DNA of 49,662 nucleotides from Girardia tigrina (taxonomy: Eukaryota), in assembly GCA_001938485.1 (NCBI GenBank), contig MQRK01250363.1, positions 1 to 49,662 of the forward strand, read 5' to 3'. Of this stretch, positions 13,401 through 39,500 are shown piece by piece. Numbering within the stretch: position 1 is the first letter of the stretch; every line of letters starts with the position of its first letter. The position numbers are program-made.

Positions 13401-16400
13401 ATAGAAAATCAAAATGAGCATATTCGTCATGTTTTGTTGCATTATTTTCGCGAAGGGAAAACCGCTGTGCAAGCTCATAAGAAGATATGTTTTTTATATG
13501 GTAGTGACTCCTTAAAACTTCGACAGTGTCAATATTGGTTTTCTAAATTTCGTTCTGAAAAATTTCCCCTGAAAGATGCACCATTCTCCGGTCGACCAGT
13601 TGAAGTTGATGGCGACAAAATAACAGCACTGATCAAATATAATCCACATATGACGACAAGAGAAGTTGCAGAAACTCTGGAAATATCAAAATCAAGTATT
13701 GGATGTCATTTAAAGAAACTTGGATTCGTCAGTAAACTCGATATGTGGTTACCACATAAACTGAAAGAAATTCATTTGGTGAAACGTATAGACATTTGCG
13801 ATTCCCTTTTGAAGCGAGAACAAAGTGATACATTTTTGAAGTGCTTGATTACGGGTGACGAAAAATGGATTGTTTACAACAATGTGGAACGCCGACAATG
13901 ATGGACAAAACGTGGTGAGCCTGCCAAAACGATCCCAAAAGCAGAAATTCACCAAAAGAAGGTTATGCTTTCCGTCTGGTGGGATTTTAAAGGAATTGTG
14001 TTTTTTGGTTTTCCGAGGAATGAAACCATCAATTCAGACAGATATTGTGGTCAGCTGGAGAAATTGGCTCATTCAATTAAACAGGAACGTCCTGAATTGG
14101 CAAATCGAAAAGGAGTTGTAATTCAGCATNNNNNNNNNNNNNNNNNNNNNNNNNNNNNNNNNNNNNNNNNNNNNNNNNNTGTGGTCAGCTGGAGAAATTG
14201 GCTCATTCAATTAAACAGGAACGTCCTGAATTGGCAAATCGAAAAGGAGTTGTAATTCAGCATGATAACGCAAGACCGCATACAAGTTTGACCACTCGAC
14301 AGAAACTCTTATCCCTGGGTTAGGAGGTTTTACCGCGCCCACCGTATTCTCCAGACTTGGCCCCATCGGATTTTCACTTATTTAGATCACTGTACAATTC
14401 CTTAAACAAAAAAACATACGCCAGTGATGATGATATCAAATCGTTCCTAGACGGCTTTTTTGCTGACAAAGGCAAAGGTTTTTATGAATCAGGAATAATG
14501 AAGCTACCGGAAAGGTGGAAGAAAGTGATTGAAAATAATGGACAGTATATCATGTAAAAATATTTGTGCATCCATGTCATTTTTTGATAATAAATATTTT
14601 AGTAAAAAACGCAATGATGTTTTGGTCAACCCAATATGTTAACGTGTCCGAGACGGCATTTTTCATCCAGAGCAGCCGCTCTCAAGGAGTGGTTCAGTTG
14701 TTTCATGACAGAGACAGCAGACCGATCATATACACAGTTAAATATAAGCGTGCGATTGATTTCTTTTTGATTCCGTTACGGTTTTAAGATGCTACCATCG
14801 CTCATCCAGTCTATTTTGTTGGAGAATTCAAACAGATTTTGAGCATGCAATATATATTGTGTTGCAATCCGACTTTTGAGTATTGTGAAGGAGAATAGTC
14901 TAACTCGACTATTCCCCAGTAAGTTTAAATAGGCCCCATCTAACACAATTAACCCCACGAACCATAAAGGCTCAGAGGCATCGCGTCAGATGGAGCCGAC
15001 GACTCGAATCATTACCAGTCTTTTCCTTGCGAACCTCAAAGATCGCCGGAGCCCCTGAGAGAACCTTTAGAACCTTGTAATGCAAAAGAGGTGTTTAAAA
15101 TACCCCAAGTTAATTAATAAAACTAATTACTTTAAAGTCCAAGTAGAAGTCACTCTGAAACGAAACTAGATAAATCAGAGAAAAACAAAACCCCTACAAC
15201 GATACCTGTATAAACAGACAGGAACAGACGGCAGATGACATAAATAAACACAAGTAGCTTCGGTAAGCGACTGGCGGCGATGTAATTGCAGAATACCTAC
15301 GATGATTACAATCACGCAATGCATCATTTCGTGACATCCGAGCGACATGCGCGGGTCCATGTACACGTCGCAAATCTAGAAACGAGATACAAATAAAATA
15401 AACAGACAATCCAGCGTAGTTACCTGCAGAGACAATAATCATGGAGGCGAGCAATAATCATCTGTTCGCGTACACATCCTGCATCTGTGAACCAGACAGC
15501 GAATATTTGTAACTGACAAATATAGTTAACCTTCACTCTGTGCATTGAAAATTTTCCGGCGTCTGTGCATAGGGGTCAATCGTACCCCATATACATTTTG
15601 ATATATTTTGTAAGGAAAACTAACAAAATTTTAGTTTTTATTTAAATTTTTATTAATTATAATAACTTATTAATAACAAAAGATTATAGTCTAAAAGATA
15701 TTAGTTGAGGCAATCCGAGTTGGCAGTTTAATTTACTTGGCTCAATTTTTTTTAAATCGCTTTTTAAATAGACTGGGGTCCATTTGACCCCAATGCACAG
15801 AGTGAAGGTTAAAATGAAATGGGTGATGTGCGACATTTAATCGAAAGGTTAATAAACAAGATTTACGAACGCAACATCCATTACACGAACGTGTAGGTGT
15901 GTAAGAAGTTTCGAGAACCTCGGATTTTGCACACCCGTTCGCGGTATAAATAGCGAATTCATTTCGCTTAAAAACGCACTCAAAAAACGAACCAAAATTA
16001 TACACCTAATTACGCACCAAATTGTTGCACAAATTTCCTTTGACATATTTTCGAAGCATTATTAGAAGATTCACGAAAGTTTTGTATTTTATTGTACGGA
16101 ACAGCATCATCGATTAATTATTTAGTTAGTTTTATTATTTTACTATTTATTATTTAGATTTTATTCATTATTAGTTTTATTTTGTTTAGTTTAAATTATG
16201 TTTCATATTAATAATTTGAGTTTATTGGAATCAGGTTCTGTCGTTAATCCTGAATCATCACATTGAATTATGTTTTATTACTATTTATTGTTACACTTTT
16301 GTAAATATTTAAATTGATTTCAATATATTCTTTGGAATTATTCGCCTTGTCTTGTTTCTCTTTGGCCTAATTTTGTCTATAACTGCCAGATCCTTTATAA

Positions 16401-36500: not shown

Positions 36501-39500
36501 GTAAAAAATTTTTTGTAAGTCAGTTTGGGAGCTGAGAGTCATCGACATTTATACCGATTTTCTTACTGGGACTTTCGGGCATGTTTGCTGATTGGCGGTT
36601 GACTGTGCACCGATTATTACGAAAAAGGAAGTCGCGACTGTTGATTTCAAAGATGCCATTGCAAATTAACTGCAAGTCGTTTATCAGATGCAGAATGTCA
36701 TCCTGTGTGTGCTGCTTATTGATAAGCAGTTGTTTATCTTGCGGAATGGAAGATTTACTTATTTACTTATATTCTCGTCTGTAGGTCGGCCATCCACTGT
36801 CGTCTCGAATATGCTGCCGATTGTTTACCCAGCGGATCCTTATCTCGGGTGAATTATTTTGGCAAGTCAACTAATTAATTAAAATTCTTAATTAACTTTT
36901 TTATTTTTTAAGGGTTTTGAAAGGATCTTCTGAAGTTTGCCCAGCGGAGTGCCATTCAGGGAATCCTTCTCGTTATGTTCTCCATTTCCGCGCGCTCGGA
37001 GCCCATTTACAAACAACGGGGATAGTCGAGTTTAAATATCCTCACAAATTCTCAATAAGGATTCCGGGCGTGCGGGACGTTGGCATCGAGAAGCGTTTCT
37101 TTCAGGTCTCTCTCCTATCAGTCGTAACAGTTGTAATACCAACACATGCAATCAATTAAAAAACAACTAAGTTCTAACAACCCCTAGAAAACGAGGTTCC
37201 CCCAAAAACTGTTAGGATGAAAGAAACACTGCGTCTTACTGATATCATTTCTGTTTTTTTGTGGTTTTGCTCGATAATGAAATGTCTCTTCTTCGTTATT
37301 TCGGAACGCAGGATCTAATAATTTATGCAAAACAACGAATAGTAACTAAACAACCTAGGCAATCTCTAATTGAAAGATGACTCCGAAATGGAAAAAAATA
37401 AATAAAATGTGTTGCGGTCTGTGAGGAATATTTTAAATTTGGTATGTTGAAATTGGTTTGTTGAATTTTGTATGTTGAGTTTAGTATTTGGAAATGTGTT
37501 TCTCCCACCCAGATGGAAAATTGATATTTTAGANNNNNNNNNNNNNNNNNNNNNNNNNNNNNNNNNNNNNNNNNNNNNNNNNNNNNNNNNNNNNNNNNNN
37601 NNNNNNNNNNNNNNNNNNNNNNNNNNNNNNNNNNNNNNNNNNNNNNNNNNNNNNNNNNNNNNNNNNNNNNNNNNNNNNNNNNNNNNNNNNNNNNNNNNNN
37701 NNNNNNNNNNNNNNNNNNNNNNNNNNNNNNNNNNNNNNNNNNNNNNNNNNNNNNNNNNNNNNNNNNNNNNNNNNNNNNNNNNNNNNNNNNNNNNNNNNNN
37801 NNNNNNNNNNNNNNNNNNNNNNNNNNNNNNNNNNNNNNNNNNNNNNNNNNNNNNNNNNNNNNNNNNNNNNNNNNNNNNNNNNNNNNNNNNNNNNNNNNNN
37901 NNNNNNNNNNNNNNNNNNNAAATTATCAATTTAGAACGATGTCGAATGACGAGAGTTTCGCTGAGAGTTGTCCAAAAGACAATTCTGATTGTAATGAAAA
38001 TAAAAGTTTGAAAAGCCATGTTGGTGTTCTTAATACGGTCCAATGCCAGTTTAAATATTAACCATAAAACAATAAGACCGCAAGTTCGAATATTAACCAT
38101 AAAACAATTAATAAAAAGAGAAGAGACGAAGACTGTAAAAGACAATACATATATTTGAACCTGTGAAATTAAAGTGAGAGAACCGAGTCCGGAACAATCC
38201 CGATCAACCCGCATTTGGTGTTGAATATCGTGTTGAAACTGAGAACGAAATATAGAGGAAACAGATAAACGGAATACCAATCACCCGATAAAAGAAACCA
38301 AACCATCATCCCACCTCAGATGGAATGAGAGGAAAGACACTCCTGAGAATAACCAGTAATCCACAAAAGTATTCAGAAAAGAGCTAAAGACCCTGAAAGA
38401 GAAATAATTAAATAACGACGAACCAAAAATGGACAAAGTAACCCCCAAGACGATCCGTTGTAGTTAGAAGGTCAACCGACCCTCCTCGCATAGCCCCTTG
38501 TGAGGCCGATCCTTGAACGAGATCCACGAGATTCGGATGCACTCCCCGGAGAAGTTATTACCCTGTAAAGAATTAGAGATAAATTAAAAAGAACAAAGAT
38601 TAATTAAAAAACTTACCATGAATCAACAGCCGATCTAATAATAGATATCACCCGACAATTTTACTTGAGTCATCGGTGACGCGGCCGCACACGAATTCCA
38701 AAATTTGAAAGTGTGTCACAACACACCGACGAGAAATCTATAGTAAAATAAAAAATTTTCAAAAATTCAAAAAATAATTTCAAAGCACACCTACCCGGAT
38801 TGTCCAACCAGCATCAGAAGAAACCCAGACAGTGGGTTGGCGCAAGGCGATTGGCTGGAGAAAACCGACAGGGTTGTACCACCCAGGTATAAAAAGCAGA
38901 ATATTTTAAAGAAGATCGACACTCGCATAATTTGTATAATTTGAATATTTTCGAAGAACAATTTGCACATTTTGAACGTTATTGAGAAATTTTGAGACGA
39001 CACTGAAAAGTTACTTATTTCGACAACAGAAACTAGACGACGACGAGAAATCCAAAAGTCCGACGCAAAAGCGAAACGAGAATAGACGTGTGATAACCCG
39101 ACAGACGATTAATTAGAGCCGACGTTAGCGGATCACGAGCGAATCTAAAGTGACTCACGAACGTTCCTCCGATTTCGATTTTATTCTTGGCCGAAAGATT
39201 AATTATAAATGTAAAATTTTGATTTGTGTTAATAGATTGAATATAAGTATTAAAAATAATTTTGTTAATTATGAATTTTAGTTATTATTATTAGCTATTT
39301 GACAAAATTTTAGAACTTTTCACCTTTCCCACTCTTAGAGGTAGTTAGCGCCCGTCGTTGTCACCGCCGTCTTTCGCTATTGATTTCCCGAACTGATTTA
39401 CGATTGATTGGACCGTTGGAGATAGAGAGTGACCACTCGGTCCCCATAATTATCGACCTGATGTCGATACCCCTCGAAGTCTTTATCGGGGTCGATCGGA

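Follow-up and report, generated by a model that had tools for sequence, protein, structure and literature searches.

Among described retroelements, the closest counterpart of the sequences considered here is TART of Drosophila, whose antisense RNAs, according to excerpts of the TART study (PMC1636488), carry multiple introns that lie partly in direct repeats and have been seen in complementary DNA and in expressed sequence tags. In the same excerpts the similar size and spacing of introns across very diverse subfamilies is called "intriguing", and the spliced RNA is said to contain no significant open reading frame (ORF) (PMC1636488). A second parallel is provided by the long terminal repeats (LTRs) of retroviruses. 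As described in part of a review on antisense LTR transcription, these are bidirectional promoters with antisense genes, exemplified by HBZ of human T-cell leukaemia virus type 1 (HTLV-1) and the antisense RNA of human immunodeficiency virus type 1 (HIV-1), and antisense RNAs from the U3 region of murine leukaemia virus (MLV) run into host DNA, forming chimeras with host genes (PMC10186651). The word "intron" is absent from that review. The arrangement discussed below comes from Girardia tigrina (Eukaryota): positions 1–49,662 of contig MQRK01250363.1 (assembly GCA_001938485.1), a stretch of 49,662 nucleotides (nt) referred to as the window, contain seven LTR-like units, lettered A to G, four of which harbour an array of short intron-like blocks on the strand opposite to the promoter. 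The original prediction for this stretch held that such units were selected to make a multi-exon antisense non-coding RNA. We give about even chances to the reading that they are solo or orphaned LTRs which combine a bidirectional promoter with a spliced antisense non-coding RNA unit.

The units that carry blocks are A (14860–16736, 1877 bp), C (26452–29614, 3163 bp), D (30606–33482, 2877 bp), F (38019–41028, 3010 bp) and G (45932–46800, a short relative whose right end is approximate), all in plus orientation, and E (33797–37129, 3333 bp, minus strand), an inverted copy of the C family. Each has a perfect TATA box, located on the plus strand in A (15945–15952), C (27171–27178), D (31267–31274), F (38888–38895) and G (46357–46364) and on the minus strand in E (36546–36553). 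The blocks are found between the TATA box and the LTR start, three each in A, C, D and F, and all of these lie on the minus strand. Proceeding away from the TATA box, the candidates of A are 15376–15423 (48 nt), 15155–15205 (51 nt) and 15074–15130 (57 nt), all GT..AG, the last with one copy of the motif TTAATTAA. Those of C are 26963–27011 (49 nt, donor GTAAGT), 26786–26835 (50 nt, GT..AG) and 26678–26730 (53 nt), which holds two TTAATTAA and is conserved in E. Unit D has 31118–31172 (55 nt) and 30942–30995 (54 nt, two TTAATTAA), both with the donor GTAAGT and respectively 87% and 85% identical to their counterparts in F, followed by 30791–30833 (43 nt, GT..AG). In F the series is 38738–38794 (57 nt) and 38563–38616 (54 nt), both GT..AG, and 38393–38442 (50 nt), a candidate added by the present analysis. 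The single candidate of E, 36862–36912 (51 nt, plus strand), is GC..AG, with an alternative GT donor at 36849, and contains two TTAATTAA.

Most of what had been predicted about these blocks is borne out by the sequence. All 11 minus-strand intervals put forward as introns are GT..AG, 43–57 nt long and have a GC content of 0.15–0.35; the GC-AG pair proposed for E is indeed GC..AG on the plus strand, and acceptor-like sites are present at 36784 (E) and 46087 (G), where lone acceptors had been claimed. The contrast drawn between AT-rich introns and GC-richer exons holds as well, with pooled GC contents of 0.19–0.31 for introns and 0.43–0.47 for exons. Two claims need adjusting: the list for F gave two intervals correctly as GT..AG and missed the third, 38393–38442, and the motif said to recur in the introns, TTAATTAA, is present but confined to one block per unit. 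That the blocks are host-sized is an assumption of the original prediction, as the window offers no recognisable host gene for comparison. Considering all blocks, 12 of 13 are GT-AG and one is GC-AG. The donor is GTAAGT or GTAAGC in 5 of the 12 GT-AG blocks, the GC donor of E reads GCAAGT, and the pyrimidine fraction of the 13 pooled blocks rises by thirds from 0.58 through 0.65 to 0.76 in the 5' to 3' direction. A branch-like YTRAY is found 15–42 nt before the 3' end in 9 of the 13, the four blocks that have none being the TATA-proximal ones. Unit G has an AT block with two TTAATTAA and the antisense acceptor at 46087, and no good donor. Mirtrons or otherwise structured introns were considered and rejected: the folds of 11 out of 11 introns gave z-scores between -1.29 and +1.18 against shuffles, and no hairpins.

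The strand and the position of the blocks are the strongest features of the arrangement. They were assessed with a splice heuristic that combines donor, acceptor, length and GC content and was set by the analyst after the claim had been seen. A strict scan of both strands of the window yielded 14 candidates, 7 of which (6 distinct intervals) coincide with claimed introns. A second scan was directed at the zones from LTR start to TATA box in the five plus-oriented units (3,746 nt) at four thresholds: candidates opposite to the TATA strand and on the TATA strand stood at 7:0, 24:0, 34:1 and 55:11, and 6, 9, 11 and 11 of the 11 claimed intervals were recovered. At the strict threshold the density is 1.87 per kb in the zones and 0.08 per kb per strand in the background, a difference of about 23-fold. 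The inverted unit E has its sole strict match on the plus strand, as expected, and in the remainder of each unit candidate numbers are at background level. The original prediction had also stressed that size and position persist between families that barely align, and this, together with a persistent number, is supported: A, C and D have three blocks each, of 43–57 nt, and the TATA-proximal block starts 517 (A), 512 (C) and 513 nt (D) from the LTR start, in spite of these families having no BLAST match to one another there, A having none to C or D at all.

Signals for transcript processing are distributed just as unevenly. In the U3 zones of A, C, D and F the hexamers AATAAA and ATTAAA occur 17 times in sense and 0 times in antisense, GTRAGT occurs 5 times in antisense and once in sense, and the A/T and G/C skews reverse at the TATA box, as they do around a divergent promoter. 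Almada et al. reportedly found in 2013 that promoter directionality is set by U1 sites and poly(A) signals, the upstream antisense side being, by that model, normally rich in poly(A) signals and quickly terminated. The upstream antisense side of the present units differs from that model, as it bears the "productive" signature, rich in donors and poor in poly(A) hexamers.

The arrangement suggests how such a unit could operate. The sense core promoter would lie on the TATA strand and the LTR promoter would fire both ways. On the opposite strand, from the promoter to the 5' edge of the LTR, there would be a short unit with two or three spliceosomal introns of 43–57 nt. An antisense side rich in U1 sites and free of poly(A) signals would let the polymerase run on, and the antisense RNA would be spliced into a stable non-coding RNA that leaves the LTR at its 5' edge. 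Starting from a 3' LTR, this RNA would run antisense into the element, which would fit self-regulation or a small-RNA precursor; one begun in a 5' or solo LTR would enter host DNA. The introns would persist because, lying on the antisense strand, they stay in the sense RNA from which copies are made. Probably the AT blocks would serve, in addition, as DNA-level elements upstream of the promoter.

This scheme depends on which strand is sense, an orientation that the original prediction assumed. Several signals agree with it. Beside the TATA boxes, D and F have an inverted CCAAT box about 45 nt upstream of the TATA box. The last plus-strand AATAAA precedes the unit end by about 100 nt in A and D, where GT-rich sequence follows, and by 509 nt in C and 260 nt in F. 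Between the promoter and the left edge of the LTR no minus-strand poly(A) hexamer occurs in A, C, D and F, so a genomic RNA from the minus strand could not end inside a 3' LTR. Introns spliced from an RNA that is reverse transcribed are lost from the progeny copies, and persistent introns should therefore be antisense. On these grounds the assumed orientation is favoured, and we consider it clearly probable; it is unproven in so far as the window contains no full-length element.

With the opposite orientation, the introns would lie on the sense strand, in an R-U5 leader, and the TATA box would drive an antisense RNA. The sequence that speaks for this is the window's sole gag-pol fragment, a decayed Ty3/gypsy-like remnant on the minus strand (17035–20595) with a weakly matching capsid-like region, partial reverse transcriptase, RNase H and integrase. 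No protease match was found in it, and even the cheapest single-path reading of it is broken 12 times or more, by 6 in-frame stops and 6 frame changes. At its end facing unit A stands a run of ten G and then TG, resembling a polypurine tract. Moreover, a 43-nt stretch of the right end of A (16700–16743) recurs with 81% identity at 20637–20678, at the fragment's 5' edge and immediately ahead of unit B. Against an element so composed, 320 nt of AT-rich DNA separate the G run from the TTAACA end of A, and A and B, on either side of the fragment, belong to different families. Between the first donor and the edge of the LTR, units A, C, D and F have no minus-strand poly(A) hexamer. Both the canonical TATA box and the AATAAA some 100 nt short of the unit end lie on the plus strand, and introns efficiently spliced from the copied RNA would vanish from new copies. 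A reversed orientation is thus held to be quite unlikely. To relate A, the 43-nt repeat and the pol fragment to one another, models with a short LTR, with a long LTR and with a nested insertion were tried, and none fits all junctions.

Comparison of D and F, two members of one family, reveals what has been kept. Both alignable introns retain GT and AG. Exon 2 measures 122 nt in D and 121 nt in F, and F contains stops; the claim that splice sites are maintained and reading frames are not is thereby upheld. The blocks themselves are 0.87 and 0.85 identical, against 0.68, 0.72 and 0.44 for the exons, a pattern that is unusual for plain introns. It invites the alternative that the AT-rich blocks are DNA-level cis-elements of U3, either AT-hook or homeodomain-type sites or spacers, in which GT and AG are by-products and nothing is spliced. 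In favour of this, no part of the D/F alignment is as well conserved as the blocks (0.85–0.87 versus 0.44–0.72), and the distribution of TTAATTAA points the same way: one homologous block in six units holds 10 of the 23 sites in the window, for which the expectation is 9.46 with a standard deviation of 3.15, the motif is paired in C, D, E and G (4 of 6 units), and G has kept the TTAATTAA block without a usable donor. Cis-elements would not, in turn, account for the strand bias of 7:0 and 24:0, the pyrimidine gradient towards the AG end, the narrow length range of 43–57 nt, the frequency of consensus donors (GTAAGT or GTAAGC in 5 of 12, GCAAGT in E) or the lack of poly(A) hexamers on the strand of the blocks, and TTAATTAA is found in just one of the three blocks per unit. 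We regard it as unlikely that the blocks are DNA elements and nothing else. Such a role is compatible with splicing and both can hold. The higher conservation of blocks than of exons, together with the confinement of TTAATTAA to one block per unit, indicates that the blocks may also act as DNA elements, and probably they are both introns and DNA-level elements upstream of the promoter. Just upstream of the TATA box, a 15-nt stretch is identical in D and F (31240–31254 and 38861–38875) within an exon 1 that is otherwise 68% identical; it may belong to the sense promoter or to an antisense start region.

The antisense exons might instead encode a small accessory protein from the minus strand, as HBZ does in HTLV-1. 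Reading frames were followed across the predicted junctions and protein searches were conducted exon by exon. The spliced model of D lends this idea some substance: it has an ATG in frame at 31281 and runs through its three junctions without a stop for 157 codons, a length reached by just 4 of 2000 shuffles, and A is free of stops for 109 codons (75 of 2000 shuffles). The other units do not follow suit. C reaches 75 codons (418 of 2000 shuffles) and F 57 codons (1489 of 2000), so that neither is open, and F has stops, the 1-nt difference in exon 2 length and no ATG at the position used in D. The D/F differences by codon position are 15, 13 and 8 in exon 1, 8, 18 and 8 in exon 2 and 20, 21 and 20 in exon 3, with no excess at third positions. 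Exon 2 of D has no relative among the longer proteins of a set of 5.8 billion, the single match of A exon 2 among 1.84 billion representatives is a translated tandem-repeat artefact, and the peptides of A and D are unlike each other. Protein coding by the antisense exons is accordingly unlikely, though less firmly so for D, and an HBZ-like product is rated very improbable indeed.

A further explanation is historical: an ancestor of these elements may have picked up, in inverted orientation, a host gene's promoter and first exons, and the introns would be relics without a role. The blocks do resemble ordinary short introns of host type, and the exons drift freely. When searched, however, the exon peptides found no homologue, and the array has been kept in at least three diverged families whose exons have diverged past detection by BLAST, the blocks being conserved above their surroundings. 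Retention of the array while the exons diverge bespeaks maintenance rather than decay, and roleless relics of a captured gene are a distinctly improbable account.

What the sequence shows is the architecture as such, biased to one strand, retained from family to family and free of coding constraint. From this we infer transcription, splicing and an RNA function of the antisense units, and a series of points weighs against taking that step. The candidate introns are known here from DNA sequence alone, and no antisense start site was found in the units. The splice heuristic was not trained on host genes, the window being without one. There is no full-length element in the window, so the strand of gag-pol relative to the LTRs is not fixed; the fragment whose G run faces A, and the partial recurrence of the right end of A at its other edge, belong on the same side of the balance, as do the excess conservation of the blocks and the survival of the TTAATTAA block in G where a good donor is missing. 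E and G are without most of the array. D/F and C/E are related pairs, so the units represent at most three or four independent families, all in the one window studied. The original proposal of a selected multi-exon antisense non-coding RNA is therefore sustained in part: the strand, the poly(A)-free and donor-rich antisense side and the absence of a conserved frame favour it, and the fact that blocks outconserve exons does not.

The assignment of the units to LTRs is based on their ends and flanks. A, B, C, D, E and F begin with TGTT or TGTC and finish with ACA. Target duplications of 4 bp are exact in 2 of 6 units, C (TATA/TATA, with TG..CA ends) and E (GTTG/GTTG); three of four bases match in D (CATG/CGTG) and in B (TAAA/CAAA), and no matching duplication is present in A (flanks ATTG and TAAA) or F. 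The TG..CA ends, together with the 4-bp duplications where these occur, mark the units as being of LTR type. A TATA box with an AATAAA further towards the 3' end also agrees with the U3-R-U5 order of an LTR. No internal terminal repeats were detected in any unit, and the window contains no LTR pair around gag-pol with primer-binding site and polypurine tract; its single gag-pol fragment lies between the unlike units A and B. The simplest reading is that A, C, D, E, F and the reduced G are solo or orphaned LTRs of related families, unusually long at 1.9 to 3.3 kb, and the source families were probably Ty3/gypsy-like LTR retrotransposons. D and F are 69–72% identical, and C and E 66%, in two stretches each. 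C is an insertion into a transposase gene: the ORF to its left is 57% identical to a PF14291 (DUF4371) protein and the homology picks up 39 nt past the end of C. D appears, from the reading of the flanking ORFs, to be inserted further along the same DUF4371-like gene. A Pfam search of the ORFs flanking C and D gave no match even at E values up to 10; the PF14291 relative came from the subsequent protein search.

Unit A could alternatively have its right end at 17057, and it contains an insert that resembles a miniature inverted-repeat transposable element (15526–15812), with perfect inverted ends of 22 nt beginning TTAA, which is not LTR sequence. This insert has a second, nested inverted repeat and separates the first antisense donor of A from its TATA box. 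Unit B (20679–22200, plus strand) shares its first 98 nt with the start of D at 80% identity and has no antisense intron candidates. On its plus strand, opposite to the blocks of the other units, a GC-rich segment of 59 nt lies between a site resembling an acceptor and one resembling a GTAAGT donor and is followed by an AT-rich GT..AG stretch of 148 nt, all within 20821–21027. In A (14893–14916), C (26537–26560), E (37017–37040, minus strand) and G (46015–46038) an imperfect palindrome is conserved some 80 nt into the LTR; its 7 predicted pairs include one with a compensatory change, which is weak evidence, and the same four units also have the AT block in common. A conserved GC-rich tail makes up the terminal 350–420 nt of C, D, E and F and includes, some 50 nt from the unit end, a run of five G common to them. 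The tail is up to 81% identical between D and F (33231–33393 and 40778–40940) and is also seen at 29262–29684 and 33720–34181. Six of the seven units (A, B, C, D, F and G) point one way and E alone is inverted, a bias like that of loci that are one-strand sources of small RNA, which with seven units may be due to chance.

The window as a whole is an AT-rich mosaic of mobile elements with a GC content of about 30%. Apart from the gag-pol fragment and the DUF4371 transposase-like gene, it accommodates a Tc5/pogo-like transposase, a Mos1-type mariner and a possible Penelope-like element. No recognisable host gene was found within its 49,662 nt, nor any tRNA gene, and no known RNA family reached the gathering score anywhere in it. 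Minus-strand ORFs at 5843–8212, with a weak GIY-YIG match that fails the cut-off (E 0.0034), may represent the Penelope-like element; beside them, on the plus strand, are pieces of a Tc5/pogo-like helix-turn-helix and DDE_1 domain (4915–5682). At the right edge a plus-strand frame of 599 codons (47865–49661) with Ty3/gypsy-type RNase H and integrase starts abruptly inside pol and leaves the window; it is AT-rich and unlike the decayed minus-strand fragment. Four runs of N interrupt the sequence. The one of 50 N in the mariner copy (13222–14636) lies between two identical 84-nt copies (14046–14129 and 14180–14263) and suggests a scaffold join where overlapping sequence was left unmerged. Another is the assembly gap of 386 N at 37534–37919, between the end of E (37129) and the start of F (38019). 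No claimed intron, exon or unit crosses it, a check that had been asked for beforehand, and two ORFs listed across it are made of N. The gap lies outside every unit, and no conclusion drawn here depends on continuity across it. Its left flank is part of a repeat found again at 10195–10318 and 23314–23390, and its right flank has no match elsewhere in the window. From 123 nt before the gap, 37411–37533 shows a start like that of B and D (TGTTGCGGTC) and then the different repeat of 10195–10318 and 23314–23390.

Two motif scans for other copies, which covered bacterial and archaeal contigs only, gave 0 matches. If the proposed units are real, splicing may give the antisense RNA a gene-like mark that favours its stability or export, may feed small-RNA production against the element, or may tune the LTR promoter through promoter-proximal introns, and every solo LTR would be a ready-made spliced non-coding RNA gene. 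Splicing of the blocks would mean that a mobile element can keep introns permanently on the strand that is not copied, and that conservation can be limited to splicing signals, with exon sequence free to drift. It would add a second, independent case to TART, and would open to testing the questions of why retroelements invest in spliced antisense RNA and whether the many solo LTRs give rise to new non-coding RNA genes or to chimeric host transcripts. Should the blocks be DNA elements only, the finding amounts to an ordinary description of LTR enhancer modules.

How far this locus departs from known systems can be judged from three comparisons. In the retrotransposition indicator cassettes used with L1, an intron antisense to the copied RNA escapes removal and survives copying. 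The cassette is an engineered marker, whereas the arrangement here is natural and multiple. Retroviral LTRs, as far as the part of the review referred to above describes them, resemble the present units in that the proposed antisense RNA starts in the LTR and exits at its 5' edge, and HBZ is spliced. HBZ, however, specifies a conserved protein, and its single intron extends into the internal region, whereas here two or three introns lie wholly within U3 and coding constraint is absent. No description of an intron array wholly inside the U3 of an LTR element was found in the literature searched, which did not extend to Russo et al. 2016 or to supplements. The view that the architecture is undescribed is nevertheless too strong, as the TART excerpts report antisense RNAs with multiple introns of similar size and spacing in direct repeats (PMC1636488). 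Like TART as portrayed there, the units have several short antisense introns in terminal repeats, with size and spacing kept and no long ORF, where antisense refers to the favoured orientation. TART is a non-LTR, telomere-specific element; the units here are LTR-type, with TG..CA ends and 4-bp duplications, and lie in a transposase gene and other repeats, which does not match a telomere-targeted element. Their array, unlike that of TART, is set between the LTR edge and the TATA box, and it is read from genomic sequence. It is a tentative and, on balance, rather doubtful proposition that TART and these LTR families independently evolved a poly(A)-free, intron-studded antisense unit in which splicing, and not the exons, is selected.

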